This document shows, piece by piece, positions 3,594 through 52,050 of a stretch of 64,000 nucleotides of DNA. This DNA is from an uncultured virus (IMG/VR IMGVR_UViG_3300025066_000021) (Duplodnaviria > Heunggongvirae > Uroviricota > Caudoviricetes): the IMG/VR virus record IMGVR_UViG_3300025066_000021. One strand, written 5' to 3'. The stretch's first letter is position 1. Each line of letters starts with the position of its first letter. The notes below the pieces were generated by a model that ran no database searches, was not told the origin of the DNA, and saw only the letters and a program-made list of their open reading frames with translations. A program made the position numbers and the translations under genes.

Positions 3594-6146
3594 TGTAAAT
3601 CCTCCTGGAAATTTAAATTTATGTGTTCTATACGTATAGGATTCAAGATGCCGGATCAAGTGAGAAAAGTAAGGTGAACAGGGTTACTTTCGGCATGATA
3701 CCTTGCAGCCAGTTTTTGGCTTCCTCGGGATACATTGAATGGAAACTTTCGAAGGTTTCCTATAATTTATTAGCTGCTTCCTCTTTTTTGTTAGCCTTAA
3801 GTTTTTCGGCCACAGCTTTTTGCCACTCGTCATCACCCATTAAAATTTGTAGGTCAGACAAAAAAATCTTTTTATCGTGTCCATTTTTAAGGTGTTGAAA
3901 TACAACCATAAATCCTGCTACTTTATCTTTGGCAGATGGATTTACAGAATTAAGGTCATAATCCCTGAAATCTATGTCAGGTTGTTTGATACTCAAAAGA
4001 TCTATTGCTTTATGCCATACAGAATTTTTGTAGTCTGTAAGTAGTTAGCGATAGAGATTTAAGTAATTCCGAGTTTATAATTCCGGTACTGGCTATCAAT
4101 CCCGAGGCCATGCCAACGTACCAACTCCACACGTCATCAAAGCAGGTGAACGTGGACTGATTTCCTCTATTGTCAGTAAGAAACCACTGCTCTCCTTCTT
4201 TGCCTACGTGATAGTTCAATACATTTCCGTTGAAAACTTGCTTAGGGTAAGCAAGGAATTCCTCTTGCAGTCCTTCTTTTGTGGACATAATTCCTCCTTT
4301 GTTCCTTCATACTCAATAGCCCGGATACTCGGTCAAGTGGGAAAAGTGAGAAAACAAAAAAAGCCGAGGAAATTAATCCCCGGCTACTTCGTTTCTTGTT
4401 ATTATCCACTGCTTTTAAGCGATGGGGGTCATCCGTATTCCCGTATAGCCTGAATTTTCGGGAAGCCTATTCGTATTCCTTTGAATACTTTATTGGCCAG
4501 TATATCAGCTCGAAAACTCTTGGACGGTTCACCTTCTTTCACGGCAAACTCAATGGGAACCTGGATGTTAGTCCTACAACTACATATCACTGCAACCATC
4601 TTGTGCTCTAACGCATGAGCATCAAGAGGGAAGAATAACATGGCTATCATGAATATTTCCATTGGCATCCTTTCGGGGGCAACCTTTTGGCCACCCCTTT
4701 CTATCTTACTCTATCTCATCTCCAAAAGGCAAATTCGGCAAGCCCTCGATTGGACCCGTTAAACTTGGCTACGTGATAGCCTTGCTCCGCTACCACTTGG
4801 CCTATCCCTGTGTTTTCAGGGAGAATCAGTGAAATCTGCTCACCTTTCTTTAAGTCCTTGATAACCTGTCGGGCCAAAGTCCTTTCTTGAGATGTTGGAA
4901 TTATTACCGAAATTCCCACGGACTCAACCAGAGTCTTGTGTTTCTTGAAAAACCTAAAAATTGACTGGAACATTTGTGTTCCTCCCTTCCTCAAAACTAA
5001 GATTCAAGATGCTGTGTCAAGTGAGAAAAATCGTGTGGGTTTTACCGGATTTCTAAAGAAGTTAAAGTTTCACCACCAACAGCAGTAAATTCCACTTCTT
5101 GTTGTGCTAACCAACGGAAAGCGATTCGATTATGCTGACTTGGGATAACCGTTGATAAAGGGTTCCCAGTTTTCATTACTTGATTAGTGATTTTGGATAT
5201 GCTTTTGATCGTTTCTAATTCCTGGCTCATCATTCCTCCTGGTTAAAAAGTCCGTCTGCACAGGCTTGCGCTAGACTCTCTTCTACCTGACCAGAAAATT
5301 CTGGATCAGTATTTTCCTGGACGGAAGCGAAAAACTCTTCTCGCTTCTCCTGTGTGCTCAAATCCCCGTTGACCTCTTTAAGGCCAGCGAAAAAACCGTC
5401 TAAACTAAATAATTGCATACACACTCCTTTGTAGGGGAAACAGAATTGTTGTTTCCCCTTGCGAAAGGAACGGAGGATCGAGGCACCCTGCCTCAATTGT
5501 TTACCCGTTCTCATACATAATAACCGAGATCCTGTGTCAAGTGACCAAACTCAGTTGACCCAAAAATGGCCCGTACTGATAAAAATCAGGGGGCCATTTT
5601 AGGTTTCGGAATTTCGGTTCCAGGTTCAGAATTCCTGGTTCCTCATCCTAGTCACGTCCCACAGTTTTCACTACAGGGACACCACGTCGTAAGAACCTTA
5701 CAGGAGCGGAATAATATCCAACTCGATGCTTGAGGCGTTTTTTCAGGTTAGTCACCAGTCTATTAGGCTTGGTGATTGTATAGTAACCTGATTTTTTCTT
5801 GAGCTTTCGCTCAAGTTTTGTGAGGCCAATTACTTCCTTGAAGGAAGGTGACCTGTATCCGAAGTTGAATACTTTTTTCCAGAAACTCATTTGATTCCTC
5901 CCTCTTTCATAACTAGTATTCCAGATATGGGATCAAGTGAGAAAAACACGGTCAAAATATAATTCTTCGTGTTCTTCGTGTTCTCTGCGGTTTTTGATTT
6001 TGGATATGTCTACGCAAAACCAAATTAATTTTAGTTTGGTATCCAGGGCCACTAAAGAAATCTAGGATTTCTTTGTCGAGTCTGATTGAAATAGCTTGTT
6101 TTGCCATATCAAAGGGGAGAGGGTCGAAGCCCTCTCCCCTAATCCC

Positions 6147-9489: not shown

Positions 9490-10713
9490 ATGAACGAGCA
9501 AAAACTTAAAGATCAAATCAAAAACTTGGGCGGTAGTTTGTATCAAGTAGGCGGTTGCGTTCGTGACTCCCTGCTTAACCGTCCATTTAATGACATAGAT
9601 TACGTTGTTGAAGGCGTAGCGACCCAAACCCTAGCAAAAGAATTTGGTGAGCCTGTAGGCCATGATTTTCCTGTATTCTTGGTTAATGTAGACGGAGAGA
9701 GCAGAGAACTCGCTATGGCTAGGATTGAAAAATCTTTGGGTGATGGTTACCACGATTTCAGCGTTGAGGTTAACGGTGTTACTCTTGAGCAAGATTTAAG
9801 CCGTAGAGACTTGACGATAAATGCTATGGCATGGGACGGGCGCAAGATCATTGACCCTTTTAACGGTCAAAGAGATTTAGCAAGCAAAAAACTGCGTCAT
9901 GTTTCCCAAGCATTTCAAGAAGATCCACTTAGAATCTTGAGAGTTGGAAGGTTCGCAGCTCAACTAGGCTTTGAAGTTTCCCAAGAAACTAAAGATCTTT
10001 GTAAGAAAATGAAACCCATGCTAACAGAGATTCCAGGTGATCGAATTGTTAAAGAGCTTGACAAAGTTCTTTTGAGCCCTTTTCCTTCCAGGTTCTTTGA
10101 CTTCTTGCTAGAAGTTGATTGCTTGGATGTGCATTTTCCTGAAATTCAAGCCTTGCTAGTTCCAGATAAACATGACGGAACGGCTTATAGGCACGTTATG
10201 AATTTGTTGGATCGTGCCAAAGGTAGATTTGACCTCAAGATTCTTTATGGTTTGTTGTTGCATGACTTAGGCAAAGGGGTAACTCCTGCTGAAAATCATC
10301 CTAGCCACTATAATCATGATAAACTTGGAATCGAGCTAGTCAGAGAGTTCGGGTTGCGTAACCGTCTTCCTTCTAGTATCCGAAAATTTAGTGAGCAGTG
10401 TTCCGAGTTTCATCTAGTACTCAGGAAAGTACCGGAGATGAAGCCGGGTAAAGCTCTTAAATACCTGCTAAAAAAGGATATCGAAGACCTTATGCTAGTA
10501 GCTTTTTTGGATGCTGTTTACAGAGATGGAGCCGACCCGGTAGTAGAGGCTGACCTTTACGCTGACATGAAGAGGTTGTACTCACTTGCCAAGGAAACCG
10601 AGCAGGAAATCCGTGGAGACGAAATTGTGGCACTAGGCTACAAGGGAAAACAGATAGGGGACATTCTTTTGATGAAGAGAATTGAACTGTTTAAAACTAA
10701 GTTGAGCGGGTAG
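9490..10713 (+). CDS. cca: CCA-adding tRNA nucleotidyltransferase with HD domain
   Basis: VGGCVRD..DIDYVV, ELAMARIE, DLSRRDLTINAMA, FQEDPLRILRVGRFAA and LLHDLGKG motifs. Confidence 0.93.
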   Translation: MNEQKLKDQIKNLGGSLYQVGGCVRDSLLNRPFNDIDYVVEGVATQTLAKEFGEPVGHDFPVFLVNVDGESRELAMARIEKSLGDGYHDFSVEVNGVTLEQDLSRRDLTINAMAWDGRKIIDPFNGQRDLASKKLRHVSQAFQEDPLRILRVGRFAAQLGFEVSQETKDLCKKMKPMLTEIPGDRIVKELDKVLLSPFPSRFFDFLLEVDCLDVHFPEIQALLVPDKHDGTAYRHVMNLLDRAKGRFDLKILYGLLLHDLGKGVTPAENHPSHYNHDKLGIELVREFGLRNRLPSSIRKFSEQCSEFHLVLRKVPEMKPGKALKYLLKKDIEDLMLVAFLDAVYRDGADPVVEADLYADMKRLYSLAKETEQEIRGDEIVALGYKGKQIGDILLMKRIELFKTKLSG

Positions 10714-11366
10714 AAATATCCGCTTTCACTTGGTTATTCCCACTTGACCTGTTATCTCGGTTACTAGTTCTGAAAGGAAGTGAGCATGAATTTTGAATAT
10801 ATATTTATTCGCCCTGTTATTCTCACTTGACCCAGTATCCGGGCTATTAAATATAACAAAGGAGCTAGAATGATACCGTTTAAATTAACTACCGATGACG
10901 AAATAGGATTTAGTGTTGAAATAGATTTTGATACTGTGTCTGAGAGGTTAAAGAAAAACAGGCCAATGGCCACAGAGGAGTTAGAATGATATGGTCAATC
11001 GACATTATGAAAACAACAGTTGAAACTCAAACGATTCTAGTATCAGGCGACACTAAAGATAAGGCTAAAGAAAAGGCTGTTTCATTAGTTGATGCTAACA
11101 GGGTTAAAATGAGTTTCGATAGAGATGATGTCAGTATTGAGATCATTGAAGAAGCCAGCGAAGAAGCAATCCAAGATAATGAGGTATTAGAATAAGATTA
11201 AGCCGGGAAACCGGCTTTTTTCTTTTAGATATAAAACTCGTGTTGGAGTTACCTTGTTCTACGAACACAAATAATATCAAAAATAATGTTCTATTTCAAC
11301 AAGTTTTTTCCCACTTGACCGAGTATCCGAGTTATTATATATAAGAACCAGGAAAAAGGAATTGAT

Positions 11367-12212
11367 ATGCACGAACTAAATTCACCGAAATTTAAAGACT
11401 TAGTTAAGAGGGCCATAGCTTTGTGGGGTCAGAATAGCCAGTTTGATATGCTTCATGAGGAAATAGGGGAACTAATGACGGCTATCTCTCATTACAGGAG
11501 AAACCGAATTTCTAAGGGCCAAGTCCTTGAGGAAATTATGGGAGTGGAGCAGATGTTGTTTGCTATTGCTAATATATACGGATTTAACACCGAAAACATG
11601 GGAGCCCAGCGAAAAATCGAGTTAGCCAAATTCGAGAGGAATTTATTACTCGCTGAAGCCAAAGCACTAGCAAGCGAAAGACATGAGGGACAGACTTACC
11701 AGGACAAGCCCTATACATTCCATTTAAACAAAGTAGCCGAAGTAGTAAAGAGATTCGGATTTGACAATCCCGATTTGTATGTGTCTGCATGGCTTCACGA
11801 CATTATAGAAGACACTGATACTGAATTAGAAGAGATAACCGAGAAATTCGGAGCAAAAATATCCTCGATTGTATGGGCTGTGACTGATGAACCTGGAAAA
11901 AACAGAGCTACTAGAAAAGCCTTGACATACAAGAAAATTAAGTTTAACAGAGATTCTACAATCGTAAAACTAGCTGACCGAATTGCTAATGTAGAAGTTA
12001 GCCTTAGCGAACCTAAGTTTTTGGCTATGTATAAAAAGGAGCACCCCAAATTTAAAGAGGGCATACGTACAAATGACCCACTACTTGAGCCGATGTGGAA
12101 AGTCTTAGACGAATATCTAAAGGATGATTCTCATAAAGTTAAATCTTTTAAGTCACAATTAAAACACGGTAATTCACATAAACAACCTAAATACCCGCCG
12201 AAAGGGGACTGA
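11367..12212 (+). CDS. MazG-like NTP-pyrophosphatase fused to RelA/SpoT-type HD hydrolase (small alarmone hydrolase-like)
   Basis: N-terminal EEIGEL...EEI helical motif; C-terminal HxGQxY..PYxxH, AWLHDIIEDT, VKLADRIAN. Confidence 0.8.
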   Translation: MHELNSPKFKDLVKRAIALWGQNSQFDMLHEEIGELMTAISHYRRNRISKGQVLEEIMGVEQMLFAIANIYGFNTENMGAQRKIELAKFERNLLLAEAKALASERHEGQTYQDKPYTFHLNKVAEVVKRFGFDNPDLYVSAWLHDIIEDTDTELEEITEKFGAKISSIVWAVTDEPGKNRATRKALTYKKIKFNRDSTIVKLADRIANVEVSLSEPKFLAMYKKEHPKFKEGIRTNDPLLEPMWKVLDEYLKDDSHKVKSFKSQLKHGNSHKQPKYPPKGD

Positions 12213-12566
12213 TGGAAACTACATTTCATTTTACTAGACAACAAATTGATTTAATTTATGTTTGCACAGAACTCCAAAATCATTACTTAGCTGATGAGTC
12301 TGATAACTTAAATGCTTTCGCTTCACTAGGTTTACTCGCTTTCTCAGAAAAACTTAGTAGACCTAGTTCACACCACTTACCCGGAATTCCTAACCAAGAG
12401 TTGACTTGTAGCAAGGAAACACTTTTGGAAATACTAAGAGTTTCGTTGTGTGAGCGACAATGGTTACAAATGTATAATAATCAAATTCCTGTTCCCACAA
12501 AGTTTGAGACTGCCAAGGAATTAAGGAAATTGTATAAGTCACAACGCAGAATTTGTCAACGAAGCT

Positions 12567-12794
12567 GTGGAGAATGCTATTAGCATAACTCGAAATACTT
12601 TTATGAAAAGAGTAGGACGAGCCATGCTCCATGACTTCGAGGAAAATATGGGATACGAAAAAAGATCCGATAAAGGTTTAACAATGGCCGATGATTTTTG
12701 TGTTAGCTACGGAAGAGCTAGGGTTGACGGAAAGCTAATTTATTTTATTAGGCATTCCTGTATAGAATATTTTTACCGGGAGGTAGGATGCTAG
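12567..12794 (+). CDS. hypothetical protein, paralog of 28499..28792
   Basis: Shared ExxxGY...GxTMAxDxCVxY motif. Confidence 0.6.
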   Translation: MENAISITRNTFMKRVGRAMLHDFEENMGYEKRSDKGLTMADDFCVSYGRARVDGKLIYFIRHSCIEYFYREVGC

Positions 12795-13049
12795 AAATTC
12801 TGAGAGACAATATCGCAGAAATGTTAAATTGTAAGGCAAATGAGATCGAGGAATTTGTTAGAGTCAATTCTCATAATAGCCTAGTAGTTGAGATTGCTAT
12901 TGACAAAATTACGGTAGGTGCTCCTCATTTGTCGGGCCAGCCAAGCGATACTTACGTTATAGGTCAGGATGCTAATCCTGGGTTGTGGGTACGGGAAAAG
13001 TCAAAAGAGCTAGATCAATGGATTGCTGAAATGTTTGGAGAGACTATTT

Positions 13050-13595
13050 ATGGATTTAAGTACTGAGAATCCGATATTATTTCTGGATATCGACGGAGTC
13101 CTTAACAGGCTTTGCGGTCCACAGAGAACTAATAGTAAGGGGCCAATTGGACTGGAAAAAGACCTAGTGGATAACTTGGGTGTAATTATGGATAATATTC
13201 CTGATCTTCAGATAGTAATAAGCTCTACCTGGAGAATTTGCGATATGGCGAGACTTTATGCTGAGTTGAAGGACAAGGGTTTCAAGTATTCTGATCGAAT
13301 TGTGGCGACTACTCCGATAACACAAGAAAGAATCCGGGGATTTGAAGTTAAACAATTCCTGGAAGAGAATAGTATAATGCACGATAATTATGCTGTGGTT
13401 GACGATGAAGTCGTGGACATCGAAGGGCATATACCACTTAATAAGACTGTTCATGTAAGTAATGCGTCGGGATTAAAAGAGAATAGCTTGTTTCGAGTTC
13501 TCAGAATTTTAGGCATGGATGGTAGCGAAGCTTATTCTATAAGCTACGAAGAAAAAGAGGAAACCAACGAAAGAGATGTTTTGAAGTATCTATGA
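13050..13595 (+). CDS. HAD-superfamily phosphatase (Swiss-Army-knife RNA-repair type)
   Basis: FLDIDGVLN, IVISSTWR, RGxEV and YAVVDD motifs. Confidence 0.85.
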   Translation: MDLSTENPILFLDIDGVLNRLCGPQRTNSKGPIGLEKDLVDNLGVIMDNIPDLQIVISSTWRICDMARLYAELKDKGFKYSDRIVATTPITQERIRGFEVKQFLEENSIMHDNYAVVDDEVVDIEGHIPLNKTVHVSNASGLKENSLFRVLRILGMDGSEAYSISYEEKEETNERDVLKYL

Positions 13596-19036: not shown

Positions 19037-19708
19037 ATGTATTTACAAATTACTACGAAATGTAACATGACCTGCGAACATTGTTGTTTTGCCTGTGAAT
19101 CTAAAGGCGACATAATGACTCTCAAAACAGCGGAACGAGCATTGAAATTGTTTGCTAACTATGAATCTCGTTGTACTATTGGAGGCGGGGAGCCCACACT
19201 TCACCCCCAGTTTTTTGAACTCTTGGGATTAGCGTTAAGCTATAACGCCTATAATTTTGATGACGTGAAAGTTTTAGTGGTAACTAATGGTAAAGTTAAG
19301 GAAAGAGCTTTACGCCTAGGAAAAATGGGAAGGGCTGACATACTTCATGTTGAGTTATCACAAACAGATTTCCATGACCCTATTTCTGATGAAGTCCTAG
19401 ATTTTTATTCTAAGCGAATAGGATCTACAGGAATTCGACGTATTGAAGGTGACCGAGTTATAGCAACTGGACGTGCTAGCGATTGGGGACCCATAAAGGG
19501 CTGTGCCTGTAATACTCCCAGAGTTACACCTACAGGGAATATTCATTTTTGCGGTTGCTTAGAAGCTCCGGTATTAGGGAACATCAACGACAAAAACGCT
19601 GAGGATATCATATCAGATATCCTCAACAAATATATTGACTATGAAGCTGATTGCTTTAAAGATCTAGAAATTAATATGAACGATGAAACTTTTGATTTAG
19701 TCGCATAA
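19037..19708 (+). CDS. radical SAM protein
   Basis: CNMTCEHC (CxxxCxxC), GGGEPTLHP, VTNG, C-terminal Cys cluster. Confidence 0.9.
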   Translation: MYLQITTKCNMTCEHCCFACESKGDIMTLKTAERALKLFANYESRCTIGGGEPTLHPQFFELLGLALSYNAYNFDDVKVLVVTNGKVKERALRLGKMGRADILHVELSQTDFHDPISDEVLDFYSKRIGSTGIRRIEGDRVIATGRASDWGPIKGCACNTPRVTPTGNIHFCGCLEAPVLGNINDKNAEDIISDILNKYIDYEADCFKDLEINMNDETFDLVA

Positions 19709-32566: not shown

Positions 32567-32639
32567 AGGGGAGTAGCTCAGCGGTTAGAGCATCCGACTC
32601 ATAATCGGCAGGTCGAGAGTTCGATCCTCTCCTCCCCTA
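32567..32639 (+). tRNA. tRNA with CAT anticodon (Ile2-like or Met); CCA not encoded
   Basis: AGGGGAG/CTCCCCT acceptor, TAGCTCAGCGGTTAGAGCA D-arm, CCGA-CTCATAA-TCGG anticodon arm, GAGAG-TTCGATC-CTCTC T-arm; discriminator A is followed by CTT. Confidence 0.93.
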
Positions 32640-32660
32640 CTTTATAGAAAGGAATTATTT

Positions 32661-44068: not shown

Positions 44069-44644
44069 ATGAAAAAAATACCCTTACTATTCTTGAGAAA
44101 TCCTGACAATTTGAGAGAGATATTTGATGTTCCTAATTCGTTGTGTCAATGGGTTTTTGATGGGGAAGGAGTAGCGACCAGAAAGTATGATGGAACTTCT
44201 TGCATGGTCAGAAATAATAAGTTATATAAACGCAGGGAAGTTAAGCCAGGAAGAGAAATCCCCGAAGACTTTATTCTAGAAGAATTTGATTCGGTAACGA
44301 AAAAATCTTTTGGTTGGGTTAGTGTCTGTGAAGATGATCCCCAAGATAAATATCATGTTACAGCGTTTCGAAATCTTCATGAGACCGGCATGGATTCAGA
44401 CGGGACTTACGAATTACTCGGACCAAAGATTCAAGGAAATCCAGAAAATATAAGGGTTGTTCATATTTTACTAAAACATTCCGAGGCTTTTATTTACGAC
44501 GACGCTCCTAGAACCTATTCTGGACTAGAAGAGTGGTTTAAAAATAAAAATATAGAGGGTTTGGTGTTCCACCATTCCGACGGTAGAATGGCCAAAATTA
44601 GACTTAAAGACTTTAACTTATCAAGAAAGGGCACTAATGAATAA
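44069..44644 (+). CDS. DUF5565/RLIG1-like RNA ligase
   Basis: ATRKYDGTSC (motif I Lys), DGTYELxGPKIQGNP, IEGLVFH, GRMAKI. Confidence 0.75.
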   Translation: MKKIPLLFLRNPDNLREIFDVPNSLCQWVFDGEGVATRKYDGTSCMVRNNKLYKRREVKPGREIPEDFILEEFDSVTKKSFGWVSVCEDDPQDKYHVTAFRNLHETGMDSDGTYELLGPKIQGNPENIRVVHILLKHSEAFIYDDAPRTYSGLEEWFKNKNIEGLVFHHSDGRMAKIRLKDFNLSRKGTNE

Positions 44645-45119
44645 AACCCCAGTTACTAAAGGCGAAGGATGGCAAACCGCTAGACTAAGGAAATCTCTTA
44701 GCGCTCCTATGAGAGCTATCCAAGAGTATGTTAATGATTTGGGATTGAGGTCTTATGTGACCTTGGACTACGGATGTGGCCGAGGCAGCGATGCTGATTT
44801 ACTCAATATGGATAAGTTTGATCCTAATTGGTTTGGACCTAATATCATTACCAGAGAAAACAGGGATGCTTCTAAGGGATATGACATTATCACTAACATC
44901 TATGTCTTAAATGTTATAAAAGACCCGGAATCCCGGTTAGAGGTCCTCAAAAACATACAAAACTTGTTGAGTTCTGATGGCATAGCGTTTATTGCGGTAC
45001 GAGACGACATTCCTGTAAACACAGATACTCAATTTATAGTTGAACCTGATCTGGATCTCATGGTTAAAGTATCCCGGAGATACAGGATTTATAGATTGGA
45101 TAAAACATGCGAACTCTAA
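44637..45119 (+). CDS. SAM-dependent methyltransferase resembling the MTase domain of TIGR04096
   Basis: TAxxRxxLSAPM, LDYGCGRGxD, FDPNW and YVLNVIxDxxxR motifs. Confidence 0.75.
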   Translation: MNKTPVTKGEGWQTARLRKSLSAPMRAIQEYVNDLGLRSYVTLDYGCGRGSDADLLNMDKFDPNWFGPNIITRENRDASKGYDIITNIYVLNVIKDPESRLEVLKNIQNLLSSDGIAFIAVRDDIPVNTDTQFIVEPDLDLMVKVSRRYRIYRLDKTCEL

Positions 45120-45417: not shown

Positions 45418-46000
45418 ATGAAACACTTAAACATCCCTCATTCGGATCTATTCAAGCCGGTGTTTTACAGAACACCCGAGGACATTTTTTCGGAAGCGAA
45501 ACACCTGCCGATAAAACTGTGAGGCTTGTTATTAATAAAGCTAGTATTTCTAGTAATAGTGTTTTCAGTCACGTCTCTCCAGGAGATCAAGTTATAGAAA
45601 TAGAGATGACTGAGGACCAGTGGAAGAATTTGTTCTTTTTCCAAATCAAAGAATTACTCCGTGTACTATTAAGTGGACAGAAAAAGACGGAAGAATAGAG
45701 GACCCTCCGGAATCAGTCTTCAAATTGACAGAGTGTATCCGAGGATTGAAAAAAGCGTTGCGAGTATCCGAAAAAACAGGGGACATCGCTAAAAGCATTT
45801 TAAACGAGGAGGCCAAGGGCTTATCTGCTAAAAAGCGGGACAGTATTAAAAGAAAGCTTGGGCCTGTCGAATCATCTTTGACTAATAACGGAACTTTTTT
45901 TACTCAAGAAGTTATTAAAACTATTCTTTATCTTGTGGATAATACCGATCAAGAAACCCTGAAAACTTTTTTGGGAAAAGTACTTGACCAGAGTTCCTGA
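45418..46000 (+). pseudogene. frameshifted phage gene
   Basis: Frame HPSFG...FFGS...IEIEMTxxQW lacks an in-frame start and appears to continue in another frame (PCTI) after ~45620. Confidence 0.45.
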
Positions 46001-46089
46001 GTATGTTACACTTTAGATGTGCCTGAGATAAAGAGTTCATCCGGATTCTGATGTGTCTCAGGGATAAGGTAGGGAGGTTCCCTACCCAC

Positions 46090-46221
46090 GAGTCGTCGTG
46101 ACGGACGCTGTTCAGGTGAGATTCCTGGATGTATTGACCGAGACTTCAAAAGCTTGGTTAGTATAGTCTAAGTCGGTTCTTGTGACCGATTGATGAGAGA
46201 GGTTCGAATCCTCTACGGCTC
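46090..46221 (+). ncRNA. oversized tRNA-like RNA 1 (132 nt)
   Basis: 7-bp acceptor GAGTCGT/ACGGCTC stacked on AGAGG-TTCGAAT-CCTCT T-arm; three internal hairpins with G-U pairs. Confidence 0.7.
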
Positions 46222-46227
46222 TTTTTT

Positions 46228-46384
46228 GGTGCATGTCACCTGAAAATACCGAAAGTTCTTCGGGAATTAACGCTTGTGGAGATGTTCCGTTGGGAACGTC
46301 AGTGAAGCAAGAATCTAATAATAGATTTGAATTGAATAGTGCTTAGCACTAAAGATTTAGATTTATGTAAATTTAGAAGAACGG
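46228..46384 (+). mobile_element. non-autonomous IS607 derivative / orphan TnpB omega-RNA scaffold
   Basis: 46243-46384 is homologous to the reverse complement of 50776-50921 (tnpB 3' end and right end), ending ...GAACGG; the 5' part resembles the IS left end. Confidence 0.8.
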
Positions 46385-46482
46385 TTTTTAAGTTACCATG
46401 TCCGCAGAAAACTTAGATACTGTCTCCCGATTTATAGGCGACAAACTTGGCGGTCTAGTCAAATTGAAATCGGGAAGCATAT

Positions 46483-46601
46483 GAGGATGGTATGGCTACG
46501 GGATTCTTTTCTGTTATCGTACCTTGGTTTGTCAAAACTGATGATATCAGGTTATCGTTTATTTTGGTTAAACTCCTTGAAGTTCGATCCTTCACGTCCT
46601 C
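46483..46601 (+). ncRNA. oversized tRNA-like RNA 2 (119 nt)
   Basis: 7-bp acceptor GAGGATG/CGTCCTC stacked on TGAAG-TTCGATC-CTTCA T-arm; three internal arms. Confidence 0.65.
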
Positions 46602-46634
46602 TTATTCCCTTAGGGGAATTATGTTTGCATAAAC

Positions 46635-46673
46635 AAAAAAGACTCTCTTGCCTATCTCAAGAGAGTCTTTTTT
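46635..46673 (+). terminator. bidirectional-type intrinsic terminator closing the RNA operon
   Basis: AAAAAAGACTCTCTTG-loop-CAAGAGAGTCTTTTTT. Confidence 0.85.
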
Positions 46674-46687
46674 CTGTAAAGGAGATT

Positions 46688-46813
46688 ATGAAGAATATCT
46701 TTCCTGTAATATTAATTCTAAGCACAATTATAGCTGGCAGTTTTGTAGGAGAAATTGAAGTAGATATTAACACTAAACCAATTGACAACCACAGTTTAAA
46801 TGTAGTAGATTAA
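46688..46813 (+). CDS. small secreted or membrane peptide (41 aa)
   Basis: AAGGAG RBS, hydrophobic N-terminus. Confidence 0.55.
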   Translation: MKNIFPVILILSTIIAGSFVGEIEVDINTKPIDNHSLNVVD

Positions 46814-47659
46814 TAAATGTAAAACCAGGAACGGAACTTCCGGGTTTTGCGGTTTTGGGAATACGAGCGGGGGAGGGGTCCCCCGCTTTTTTTATTTGCA
46901 TTAAACGAAATGGTATGGTAGTATTAGATGAGTCGAAATAAAGTTGGTTTCTAATCTGGGAGCGGATTTTATAAGACTCAAAACTTTGCTAGCAAGACTT
47001 ACAAAAACCTTGTTAGTAATTTTAGGGTTTTTGGTAGTAATATGTCAAAAACACCAGATCGAAAGAGCCGGAATTTCCGGCTCTTTTTTATTGACCAAAA
47101 ACTTTAGTTACCTTATAATAGAATAAAGGAGTATTTAAAAGAGCAGGTAGCCCAAAAGCCATAGGTAAAACCGGATTCAAATCTTTAACTTATGAAGCAG
47201 AGTTGCCTAACTATGGATCAGACTGTTTTGATGAAGTAATAGTAGACAGACTTCCTAGGTTTGATTTGAGCAAGACTTTTGAAGCAGCAGCATTCTGTAA
47301 ACAACTACAAGAAGCTGAAATTAAGGTTTTAAGACTAGCTTACAAGACTTTTCCTGGTCAAACTGTTTTACCTGAGACAATGAAATTTACTGTTAGTAAC
47401 GAGGGGTATTATGATGAATTTGAAAACCTTGTGGTAACATTTTCTTTCGAGGTAAAAGAAACTTTAGAAGAAAAAGAAAAAAGAGAGCAAACCGCAGTCA
47501 AACGAAAGTTATCAGCAGAAAAAACAGCTAAAACTCGAAAAGACAAGAAAAGGGAAAAACTATTACAAGAACTTAAGGATGATCCTGAATTACTCAACCA
47601 AATAAAAAAGAGTCTTGACACTAAAATAAGTAAGTAGTATAATAAAATAAAGGAGAGTT

Positions 47660-48058
47660 ATGAAAGTACTAATTTTTTTGTTACTAAACACTTTAGCATT
47701 TTCTCAGGGGATTAATCCTGAGAATTATTATCCTCAAACTTATATGCCAATGCCTGTAATGCCGATGTACCAAGCTCAGCCTCAAGCTCCTGTTATAATT
47801 AATATTATTAACGGGCAAGCTCAACCTACACAACAAGCGCAGCAAAACCTCAGGAGACGTGGTAAGAATTTAGGAGTAAGACTCAGAAACATGGGAGCTG
47901 TTTACACAGGGTACTCAGGATATAAACATTACAAGAGAACCGGGGATATCAAGAGCTTTTTGAAAAGCGGTAAAGCTAAAATTGGCGTGGGAACTATGTT
48001 GTTCTCCAAGCCTCTCAGTAAAATTCCAGGGCTCAAGCATTTGTTAAAGCTAAGATAA
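47660..48058 (+). CDS. signal-peptide protein, Q/P-rich
   Basis: MKVLIFLLLNTLAFS N-terminus; own TTGACA-N17-TATAAT promoter. Confidence 0.65.
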   Translation: MKVLIFLLLNTLAFSQGINPENYYPQTYMPMPVMPMYQAQPQAPVIINIINGQAQPTQQAQQNLRRRGKNLGVRLRNMGAVYTGYSGYKHYKRTGDIKSFLKSGKAKIGVGTMLFSKPLSKIPGLKHLLKLR

Positions 48059-48516
48059 TGTTAAGCACTGCTTTCATGTTTATGATTTCGTGCTTTCTTT
48101 GTGTGGGCTACCTGATTCTCAAAAAAAGCATAAACACTCATTTGCTTAATGAGTATTGTAAGCAAGAAATAGATTTTAATGTTTCCCAAGAAATGAAAGA
48201 TCAAGTTGACCAAGTAGCTCGTAGACTGTGGGTTGATTACATATTCGCTGAACCCTATTATATAAATGATTTGAAATACTTTGTTGACGAAGGAATAAGC
48301 TTGGGAACTCTGGAAACTCAGCTAGAACACATAGGAAGCTGTGCTAGACTGTATAGCTATGTTTGTGAGGACTTACTTCCTATAATTCATTTCTTACGAA
48401 ACAAACTTCAAGAAGTTAATATCAAACGAGATCAACTAGGTCTCCAGCTTTTCCAGGACCTTAGTCCCCAGACCCTTTCTTATAATGATGGACCTATCAT
48501 ACTTTTTGAGTCGTAA
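48058..48516 (+). CDS. membrane-anchored protein, tandem paralog A
   Basis: Similar to 48516..48938 (ILKKxIN..LLN..C..EIDF...TLExQL...KLxEVNxKRxQLGL). Confidence 0.75.
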   Translation: MLSTAFMFMISCFLCVGYLILKKSINTHLLNEYCKQEIDFNVSQEMKDQVDQVARRLWVDYIFAEPYYINDLKYFVDEGISLGTLETQLEHIGSCARLYSYVCEDLLPIIHFLRNKLQEVNIKRDQLGLQLFQDLSPQTLSYNDGPIILFES

Positions 48517-48938
48517 TGATAACCACATTCTTTCTATGTATAACCGGGTGTATAGGATACAAGATTCTTAAGAAAAGAATAAATGCTCGTTTGCTTAACC
48601 AATTTTGCATGGAAGAAATAGATTTTAGTATTTCTAGTGAAATGAGAAAAATAGTTAAGGAATCGGCTAAACGAGCTTCTGAAGCCAGTGCTTTCAGCGA
48701 AAACGCTTGGGACCATGATTTACAATATTTTATTACCAACGGAATAAGTTATTATACCCTGGAAAACCAGCTCAAAGAATTAGGGGATTGTGTTAAGTGT
48801 TACTCGCATTCCTGTGCAGACATGGTGCCGATTATTTTTTATTTGAAAGACAAACTCAAAGAAGTTAATACCAAACGAAGTCAGCTAGGGTTACCTGCTT
48901 TACAAGACCGAAGTCCTGAGTCTTACGCCTCCTCTTAG
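48516..48938 (+). CDS. membrane-anchored protein, tandem paralog B
   Basis: Same shared motifs as 48058..48516. Confidence 0.75.
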   Translation: MITTFFLCITGCIGYKILKKRINARLLNQFCMEEIDFSISSEMRKIVKESAKRASEASAFSENAWDHDLQYFITNGISYYTLENQLKELGDCVKCYSHSCADMVPIIFYLKDKLKEVNTKRSQLGLPALQDRSPESYASS

Positions 48939-49540
48939 GCCAACCTTTTTATAAATATATGATAGAAACAGTCTTTGTTATATTTACTGCTCAAGTAATG
49001 ATGTGGATAGGAGCTGGCCATACCGCAGCTAGAAGAGCGGTTATAAAGCGTCATGTCCACGAGAATCTTGACACAACCATACCACCCGACGTTCTTAAAA
49101 ACATGGCTAATGGTATAAAAGAAATAAATAAATTTCCTAGTTGTTTTTCTAACACAATTACCAGTTATGAAAGAGCCCTGGAAAAAGCGCTTTTAGATTT
49201 AATTTCTAAGTCTAAATTTAAACCAGAGAAAATAGGCTCAATAATTGACTTACTAAATGAAAGGTACAATAAAAGTCTTGGCTTGTCTTGTACAAGAAAC
49301 TTTTTTTATAATAAGCGTGACCACGTTATCTTAGAATTATCAAAGTATAAGTATTACGATTAAAAAATTAATAAAATTAATCTTGGAGTTACATTATTCT
49401 ATGAATAAAGATTTTTCCAAAAAGTTTTGCCCAAAATTTTTTTTTGTATAAAACCCTTTTCGGAGTTACATTATTCTATGAAGAAAAAAATCCTGCTCAA
49501 AAAAAAATAATTTGGAGTCACAAATTTCGTTGGAAATTAG

Positions 49541-50390: not shown

Positions 50391-50808
50391 AGTAATCCTT
50401 AGGTAACTTTTATATAGTATAACCTATTAATTTTAAAAGGTCTACTACTATCAAACCAAAAACCTTAAGGGAAAAACCAGACAACCAGAAAAAACACAGA
50501 GTAATATTGTCCACACCAAAGACTCTCTCCAGCTTTTTATGCCTCCTGATCTGGCTATATTAAAAAGATTGTATATTAAAAACCTTGCTACAAAAATTAC
50601 AAGGCTCTCTAATAGTAATAAAACTATTAATCCTACCATCCTAAACTCCTGTCTAGCTCATTAGTTTGAAAAGGTCTGTTACTATCAAACCAAAAACCCA
50701 AACGAATAATACAAGAGAATATACAGAACAGCAAACTAACACAACCCATACCAACGATTCTCTCCAGTTATTCAGCCGTTCCTCTAAACTTACATAAATC
50801 CATTAAAG

Positions 50809-52050
50809 TCATACAAAAGTACTCCTTTGATTGGAATTATTGTTAGATTCTTGCTTCATAGACGGGACTAATGTTCCATCTCCACAAGCGTTGATTCCCG
50901 AGTGAACTCTCGGTATTTTAAAAACATTATGAAACCACCAGACCAAATTGAGAGCTGCGTTCAGGTCTCGACAGAGGCTTATTCCGCATTCCTCACACTG
51001 GTAAACTCGGGCACTTAATTTCAACTCTTTCTTGACCTCTCCACAGCCTGAACATCTTTTGGAGGAAGGGAAGAATCTGTCCGCAAGGACGATCTCAATC
51101 CCTTCCCAATCACACTTGTACTCAAGCTGTCTTCGGATTTCTCCAAAGGATGAATCTGCTAAACTCCTACTCAGTCTTCTGTTTTTAATCATATTCTTAA
51201 CTGCCAAGTCTTCAACGACGATTGCCCTTGGATTGGTTTTCACCAAGGCAGCAGTCATCTGATGGATAGCATCTCTACGAATACAAGAAATTTGATAATG
51301 AAGTTTAGCTAATTTCTTTTTGGCTTTGGTTCTATTGTTAGATCCTTTTTTCTTCCTACTTAGGCTTCGAGAAAGTCTTTGGAGCTTTTCTAATTTATTT
51401 TTTAAGACTTTTGGATTTTGAAATGGGTCACCTTTTGAAGGCGTAGCCAAGGTCTTAATACCTAAGTCAACTCCTAAGATCTCAGAACTAATTCCTAAAG
51501 GAATTTCTGGGATTTCTTCTTCAACTTGGAGGGAGACAAACCATCTTCCGGCTACGCTGGAAACTGAGGCTGATAATATCTTTAAGTCTTTAGGCAAATA
51601 GCCTTTTTCCTTAACTTTAAGTTTACCTAATCTTGGTAGTTGGATATGGTTTTCATCCAGTACCTTGATTGATCCAGTAAGTCTGAAGCTTTGCTTGGAA
51701 TCATGCTTTGACTTAAATCTAGGGAATCCGGGCTTCTCTCCAGATTTCCTACTCTTAAGTTTTCTGAAGAATCCCTTGTAAGCTTTATCTAAATCTCTTA
51801 GGGCTTCTTGAGGAGCACACTTTGAGACTTCATACATCCAAGGAAATTCAGTTTTCTTTAAGGGATTAAGTTTCTTGTGAAGACTAATAGCATTAAGCTT
51901 CTCTTTAGATTCAGCTTTATAAGCTTCTATTTTAAGATCCAGTCCCCAGTTATAAGTGAACCGAGCTGCACCACAATGCTTTGCAAGCAGAGTGCGTTGC
52001 TTATTGTTTACCTTGAGTTCGGTCTTATAACCTCGGACTATTGTTCTCAT
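50809..52050 (-). CDS. tnpB: RNA-guided endonuclease TnpB
   Basis: GAARFTYNWGL, GFPRFKSK, RuvC residues GVDLG / VEDL / RDLNAA intact, CxxC..CxxC zinc finger. Confidence 0.95.
   Translation of the reverse strand: MRTIVRGYKTELKVNNKQRTLLAKHCGAARFTYNWGLDLKIEAYKAESKEKLNAISLHKKLNPLKKTEFPWMYEVSKCAPQEALRDLDKAYKGFFRKLKSRKSGEKPGFPRFKSKHDSKQSFRLTGSIKVLDENHIQLPRLGKLKVKEKGYLPKDLKILSASVSSVAGRWFVSLQVEEEIPEIPLGISSEILGVDLGIKTLATPSKGDPFQNPKVLKNKLEKLQRLSRSLSRKKKGSNNRTKAKKKLAKLHYQISCIRRDAIHQMTAALVKTNPRAIVVEDLAVKNMIKNRRLSRSLADSSFGEIRRQLEYKCDWEGIEIVLADRFFPSSKRCSGCGEVKKELKLSARVYQCEECGISLCRDLNAALNLVWWFHNVFKIPRVHSGINACGDGTLVPSMKQESNNNSNQRSTFV

Follow-up and report, generated by a model that had tools for sequence, protein, structure and literature searches.

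To our knowledge, the oversized tRNA look-alikes found on phages and plasmids have gone unexplained ever since RNAC and RNAD of phage T4 were described. These two RNAs (species 1, 139 nt, and species 2, 119 nt, respectively) are the nearest precedent for the genes reported here: they are adjacent, larger than a tRNA and carried by a mobile genome, and their roles are still given as unknown in the available portions of the literature (PMC3014915, PMC9697503). The nearest functional analogues are the t-elements of plant mitochondria and haloarchaea, which the partial accounts at hand describe as non-decoding acceptor/T-arm look-alikes lying between transcribed units. They are cut by RNase P and RNase Z, and by analogy the RNAs described below would be expected to be cut likewise. 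The literature found, as far as its available parts go, places t-elements in organelles and archaea, with none on bacterial mobile elements. The acceptor/T-arm half of a tRNA is the part recognized by RNase P, RNase Z and the CCA-adding enzymes.

The stretch of DNA analysed here (the window, 64,000 nt) looks like a plasmid-like bacterial mobile element. Its mobile-element features comprise FtsK/SpoIIIE, ArdA, DUF932, SprT-like and DUF2958 proteins and a serine recombinase with TnpB; its expression signals are bacterial (sigma-70-type boxes and hairpin terminators), and one neighbouring protein is recorded on a 347 kb contig. Two oversized tRNA look-alikes, here called mimic 1 and mimic 2, lie on the same strand, 260 nt apart (spacer 46223-46482), in a region (about 46000-47200) where no convincing long gene was found. 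The features of this locus are given below in order of position.

45984-46012, plus strand: promoter-like site (TTGACC, 17 nt, TACACT; TG before the -10 box)
46019-46089, plus strand: 71-nt leader with two hairpins ahead of mimic 1 (-32.8 kcal/mol, z -4.38; one shuffle in 200 folds as well)
46090-46222, plus strand: mimic 1, 132 nt (46090-46221) plus a discriminator U, with U6 after it
46243-46384, plus strand: relic, recognized by sequence similarity, of a tnpB 3' end (guide-RNA scaffold region) with the start of the right end, inside the spacer
46483-46602, plus strand: mimic 2 (acceptor 46483-46489 / 46595-46601; T arm 46578-46594; discriminator U 46602)
46489-46523 and 46526-46574, plus strand: long arms I and II of mimic 2 in the predicted fold
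46604-46619, plus strand: small predicted hairpin directly 3' of mimic 2
46635-46673, plus strand: intrinsic terminator (10-bp G+C core stem, 46641-46650 / 46658-46667, then T6)
46688-46813, plus strand: ORF of 41 codons encoding a hydrophobic peptide (codon-usage score +0.163 per codon; 1% of null segments score as high)

Mimic 2 spans 119 nt at 46483-46601, plus the discriminator U, and encodes no CCA at its 3' end. Much of what a preliminary description had proposed for it holds. The acceptor GAGGAUG/CGUCCUC is paired at 7/7 positions, with one G.U; the T arm UGAAG-UUCGAUC-CUUCA lies directly before the acceptor 3' strand and has a 5-bp stem, a closing G53-C61 pair and the canonical loop UUCGAUC; and the discriminator is indeed U, at 46602. 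The arm proposed at the D position is elongated as described, with 13 bp in two segments at pair probabilities of 0.79-1.0. In the predicted MFE fold, a cloverleaf-like four-way junction, this arm I consists of 7 + 6 bp around a 2x2 internal loop and carries the apical loop UUCUU. A 2-nt linker joins it to arm II, which has 6 + 5 + 7 bp (18 bp, RNA positions 44-92) and a 6-nt apical loop, UCAGGU, and a 3-nt linker leads from there to the T arm. Pair probabilities run from 0.68 to 1.0 overall, and the fold is unchanged within a 296-nt context, both as MFE and as centroid.

One part of the earlier model fell away. The anticodon-position hairpin UGUCA-AAACUGA-UGAUA and the accompanying short variable arm have pair probabilities of 0.0002-0.0004, and a fold constrained to the AAACUGA loop reaches -30.9 kcal/mol against -36.1 for the favoured one, a cost of 5.2, with an ensemble share of 1.4e-4 (0.014%). 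The single 18-bp arm is favoured in place of the 7-nt-loop hairpin and variable arm, and the proposed loop has A at position 33. The description of mimic 2 as a tRNA mimic is thus upheld in a particular form, with the top half intact and the decoding module absent, and mimic 2 is probably a non-decoding tRNA look-alike.

Comparison with shuffled controls, by which the earlier proposal was to be judged, came out in its favour. The MFE of mimic 2 is -34.9 kcal/mol (z -3.81, 0/200 shuffles as good; in a second shuffle set, z -3.98, 0/300). The interior alone (RNA positions 8-95) gives z -3.23, with 3/500 as good, and the reverse complement z -0.55, with 81/300 as good; the fold is strand-specific because 9 of its 42 pairs are G.U. 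Folded as single-stranded DNA, the plus and minus strands give z -1.01 (28/200 as good) and z -1.06 (31/200), respectively. As modelled, this strand- and RNA-specific fold points to an RNA made from the plus strand. A z of -3.5 or lower was also reached by 3 of 62 background windows of 120 nt, so that the fold energy of mimic 2 is not in itself rare. It is the tRNA signature that gives mimic 2 its significance. Both strands of the 64 kb were scanned for a strict top half, defined by a T loop TTCGANN, G53-C61, 5/5 T-stem pairs, 7/7 acceptor pairs with at most two G.U, and a span of 60-260 nt. Three matches were returned: the element's tRNA-Met, mimic 1 and mimic 2. Resampled windows held a mean of 0.03 matches, with any match at all in 8/300; under a looser scan the window held five matches against a mean of 0.67.

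Mimic 1 has the acceptor GAGUCGU/ACGGCUC, the T arm AGAGG-UUCGAAU-CCUCU and three or four predicted interior hairpins, and its fold scores z -3.0 to -3.07 on the plus strand and +0.22 on the reverse complement. As first described, G1-C72, A2-U71, G3-C70 and U73 are common to both mimics, and alignment confirms that their interiors are unrelated. Six of the 12 top-half pairs differ between them on both sides, and all 12 are paired in both. The further proposal of a family selected for acceptor-end recognition is not borne out, the two members coming from one element; plain inheritance from a duplication could account for U73 and the three pairs in common.

Relatives were sought widely. No match to 45900-47200 was found by blastn among phages and plasmids, and both mimics alone, searched against 50,697 phage records at E <= 10, returned T-arm-sized pieces only. 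Rfam gave no match to either mimic even at E <= 10. The exact top-half pattern of mimic 1 had 0 matches in viral contigs and that of mimic 2 had one, which lacks the T stem and which we take to be a chance match inside coding sequence; roughly one match to such a 21-base pattern is expected there by chance, by our estimate. In a set of 5.8 billion clusters each flanking ORF is an orphan that matches only itself, and neither occurs in viral contigs; the upstream ORF had no usable match in the ESM Atlas. The 80 loci of TnpB relatives held ordinary tRNAs only. A second contig carries a 99.96% identical copy of the element, with 0 differences in 46000-46700.

Several other genes of the element bear on RNA ends, and one canonical tRNA is encoded.

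9490-10713, plus strand: CCA-adding enzyme with an HD domain (PolyA_pol 6e-22, RNA-binding domain 2.6e-13, HD 3.8e-06, phrog_2244 9.5e-94)
11367-12212: HD_4 hydrolase with a MazG-like N-terminus
13023-13595: HAD_SAK_2 RNA-repair domain
32567-32640: the sole canonical tRNA, Met(CAU), with an A1-U72 pair and no encoded CCA
44069-44644: RNA ligase of the DUF5565/RLIG1 type, overlapping a methyltransferase gene by 8 nt

The RNA-end and repair gene set spans 9490-13595 and 44069-45119. The RNA ligase has relatives at 2 viral, 11 metagenome and 13 plasmid places; the ligase is all that these places share with the element, and no mimic lies beside any relative examined. Among the 67 window ORFs scanned, PADLOC found no tRNA-targeting system. 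Elsewhere in the window, a radical-SAM protein at 19037-19708 gives viperin-like PADLOC matches (1e-11) in an element otherwise rich in anti-restriction-type genes, and at 48058-49363 three paralogous ORFs stand in tandem, each 134-152 codons long and unmatched to any family (repeat families D1 and D3). About 6 nt separate the end of a TATAAT box from the first base of the tRNA-Met, so that its transcript may have almost no leader.

We propose that mimic 2 is a tRNA-derived RNA that is trimmed by RNase P and RNase Z, tailed with CCA and acts through its acceptor end, perhaps as a decoy, and we put the probability of this reading at roughly 0.4. Its parts are held with different degrees of confidence: that mimic 2 is a real structured tRNA-derived RNA seems fairly probable, while a role as decoy or ligand is doubtful enough to be offered as a suggestion. 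RNase P, RNase Z and CCA-adding enzymes read the top half, so the most economical account is a non-decoding tRNA-derived RNA matured by them. A single plus-strand transcript, begun at a promoter near 46000 and ended by the terminator at 46641-46673, would carry both mimics. RNase P would cut at 46482/46483 (with a U at position -1); trimming after U 46602 would fall to RNase Z or exonucleases; and CCA would be added by the CCA-adding enzyme of the host or by the element's own (9490-10713), which would complete the CCA-less 3' ends of both mimics. The product would be a stable RNA of 119-120 nt plus CCA. Because two long arms replace its D and anticodon arms, it cannot read a codon, and it might instead be bound, as a decoy or substitute substrate, by a protein that recognizes the acceptor stem and CCA end of tRNAs. 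Candidate targets would be tRNA toxins that read the acceptor, or repair enzymes, at work in element-host conflicts. Toxic alarmone synthetases, according to the accessible part of one report, read acceptor-stem base pairs and modify a bare minihelix, and the modification is reversed by a phage small alarmone hydrolase (PMC11559606). The existence of toxins that read the acceptor end, together with the tRNA-end repair genes of the element, makes a decoy or substrate the function that we prefer, tentatively.

In favour of this proposal we count the 12/12 top-half pairs kept across the mimics despite six double changes, and the presence of the CCA-adding enzyme, HD_4 hydrolase, HAD_SAK_2 domain and RNA ligase in the window. 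Against it, searches of phages, plasmids and viral contigs gave no relative of mimic 2, the sole other copy being identical; the repair genes lie 2-37 kb from the mimics, and their relatives elsewhere have no mimic nearby; the promoter-like site at 45984-46012 is a weak consensus match; and the U6 run after mimic 1 might end transcription before mimic 2. No candidate start other than that site was returned upstream of both mimics by the scan, which registers consensus matches only (8 sites against 4.4 expected in shuffles). On the plus strand of 46013-46482 no promoter-like site was found, so mimic 2 would depend on read-through. The terminator was recognized from an inverted repeat (I5), the context fold and direct reading; a simple scan did not list it, probably because flanking A/T runs lengthen the stem and consume the T run.

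A first alternative, which we regard as unlikely, is that the mimics are processing punctuation in the manner of t-elements, cut by RNase P and RNase Z to define the ends of neighbouring RNAs. Those neighbours would be a 260-nt relic of a TnpB scaffold between the mimics and a 73-nt hairpin-plus-terminator RNA after mimic 2. The presence of a TnpB 3'-end (guide-RNA scaffold) relic flanked by the two mimics is a new observation, made by alignment with the intact gene.

50809-52050, minus strand: intact tnpB (Pfam), 4.4 kb from the relic

The relic at 46243-46384 matches, at 75% identity, the reverse complement of 50776-50919, a segment made up of the last ~110 nt of intact tnpB and 33 nt past its stop. 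Of 21 residues in the relic peptide, 16 agree with TnpB residues 384-404; nothing else of the transposon is present. In characterized TnpB elements the guide-RNA scaffold is encoded by this region, and published abstracts are in agreement. Relic and intact copy have 33 predicted pairs in common, with five compensatory changes, four one-sided changes and none broken, which indicates that constraint on the RNA structure of the scaffold acted at least until recently.

Several observations thus fit the punctuation account: the relic has a mimic on either side and no candidate promoter separates the two, it keeps 33/33 scaffold pairs, the spacer folds with z -3.77, and t-elements act in this way in plant mitochondria, as far as the partial source goes (PMC1920247). 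On the other side, a minimal acceptor/T-arm hairpin would suffice for such a purpose, which leaves two long, well-paired arms unexplained; the 3' half of the relic has no convincing alignment to the intact copy; and the compensatory changes may predate the truncation. A more specific version, in which RNase P and RNase Z cut the mimics to free 46223-46482 as an orphan scaffold used in trans by the TnpB 4.4 kb away, is very unlikely. In that tRNA-guide-tRNA array, cleavage by RNase P at 46482/46483 would set the 3' end of the 260-nt scaffold RNA. Were it true, engineered tRNA-gRNA arrays would have a counterpart in nature, and the spacer RNA, if expressed, would link tRNA-processing enzymes to guide-RNA maturation.

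Further features were noted around the two tnpB copies and downstream of mimic 2. A word of 9 nt at the start of mimic 2, AGGATGGTA (46484-46492), recurs at 50632-50640 on the minus strand, beyond the intact IS copy's right end and at a roughly equivalent offset; the chance of coincidence is estimated at 2-9%, and the recurrence may reflect chance or a shared insertion flank. Downstream of intact tnpB, 50426-50532 and 50660-50767 form a tandem duplication of ~108 nt (74% identity) with two right-end copies. An RNase Z cut after mimic 2 would leave a 73-nt RNA (46603-46673) with a 5' hairpin, an A/U-rich single strand and a terminator, the shape of a small regulatory RNA. Two further short non-coding units with strong terminators (46865-46893 and about 47062-47090) occupy 46820-47100, and their matches to Bacillus small-RNA models are weak and sub-threshold.

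Equally open to doubt is the view that the mimics are decaying tRNA pseudogenes with insertions in the D and anticodon regions, functionless and kept only through youth. They are orphans with no relatives found, no decoding features are left, and the transposon relic between them implies that the locus has been rearranged. Decay should break helices, however, and each of the two genes retains all 12 top-half pairs and both long arms whole; moreover, the interior of mimic 2 beats its shuffles (z -3.23, 3/500) and has strand-specific G.U pairs.

The likelihood is lower again, and slight, that mimic 2 is a DNA-level element (a single-strand promoter, an origin hairpin or an integrase attachment site) or a chance match. 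Mobile elements often carry tRNA 3' fragments, and this one is plasmid-like (ArdA, FtsK, DUF932, SprT). Neither DNA strand beats its shuffles, though (28/200 and 31/200 as good), an attachment site has no need of the 5' acceptor strand, and the full signature, expected 0.03 times per window, occurs twice on one strand with 260 nt in between.

That mimic 2 is a functional decoding tRNA of an uncommon form, with an intron or expanded arms, is highly improbable. The top half of mimic 2 is perfect by the standard of the Rfam tRNA model RF00005, with a 7-bp acceptor, a 5-bp T stem and a UUCRANY loop, and archaeal loci also hold oversized spans, which we take to be intron-containing tRNAs. The anticodon arm of that model (5-bp stem, 7-nt loop, U33, purine 37) is absent from mimic 2, however, and a 13-bp arm whose loop lacks G18-G19 replaces the 3-4-bp D stem. 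The T loop thus lacks a GG loop to pair with, which makes it doubtful that a tRNA-like elbow forms. Neither long-arm tip of mimic 2 carries a 7-nt loop with U33 and purine 37, nor does any arm tip of mimic 1. On inspection alone, no bulge-helix-bulge motif was seen, the internal loops being 2x2 and 1x2, not 3-nt bulges 4 bp apart. The context is bacterial (-10 boxes, ribosome-binding sites, hairpin terminators). At its default threshold ARAGORN made no call at mimic 2, with introns disallowed or allowed, and called the control tRNA-Met; Rfam tRNA gave nothing at E <= 10, with the same control scoring 69.3 bits against a gathering score of 29 bits. Calls by ARAGORN at lowered thresholds were mutually inconsistent and are regarded as spurious.

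The archaeal spans, found in two MAG loci reached via TnpB (L078, 1544-1676 and 2657-2805, minus strand; L088, 4742-4845, plus strand, and 5467-5603, minus strand), are 104-149 nt long, encode a CCA and show a top half that is perfect for a tRNA; ARAGORN did not call them.

Two other RNA classes were considered for mimic 2 and rejected. A tmRNA is contradicted by the third acceptor pair, G3-C70 and not the G3.U70 alanine identity pair, and by the lack of an Rfam match; the tmRNA mode of ARAGORN found nothing at mimic 2, also at a lowered threshold. In bacterial Y RNAs (YrlA) the 5' and 3' ends pair in a long Ro-binding stem, with the tRNA-like module inside; the T arm of mimic 2 abuts the 3' end, and no such match was returned by Rfam at E <= 10.

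Two frames run over mimic 2, ORF 46481-46813 (110 codons) and ORF 46492-46632. Over mimic 2 the first scores -0.143 per codon, a value equalled or exceeded by 51% of null segments, and 0/173 true-gene windows score as low. By codon usage the overlapping frame is non-coding, and 46688-46813 is its sole gene-like part. Least probable of all is that mimic 2 belongs to a protein-coding gene, for both frames are open with an ATG start but score -0.143 and -0.096 per codon, have no Pfam match and, in the longer frame, contain a strong terminator and gene-like codons only from 46688, with a separate ribosome-binding site. That site is strong and directly follows the terminator. The 46688-46813 peptide has a hydrophobic N-terminal half and an acidic tail, and could be a small membrane peptide or the product of a type I toxin-like gene.

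Returning to the described systems, the proposed tRNA-derived RNA resembles each of them in part. T4 RNAC, like the mimics, carries a canonical T arm, CCGGG-UUCGAAU-CCCGG, adjoining the 3' end, although its end-to-end acceptor pairing is imperfect in the annotated span. Alignment revealed no sequence similarity of mimic 2 to rnaC or rnaD, the T-loop region being all that it has in common with rnaC. RNAD has no T arm and, unlike mimic 2, folds no better than its shuffles (z -0.83). A tRNA array precedes the T4 RNAs, which lie at its end, whereas the window of the mimics holds a single tRNA, 14 kb off. The element of mimic 2 also encodes functions for the repair of tRNA ends (CCA-adding enzyme, HD hydrolase, RNA ligase), and this setting turns an acceptor-end decoy or substrate into a testable idea. 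The role of a t-element does not need the long extra arms of mimic 2. From a canonical tRNA (RF00005), mimic 2 differs in its length of 119 nt, in the 13-bp D-position arm without GG and in the 18-bp anticodon-position arm with its 6-nt loop; it shares with that model the 7-bp acceptor, the 5-bp T stem, G53-C61, the four-way junction and the short linkers, and its CCA-less 3' end is like that of the element's own tRNA-Met.
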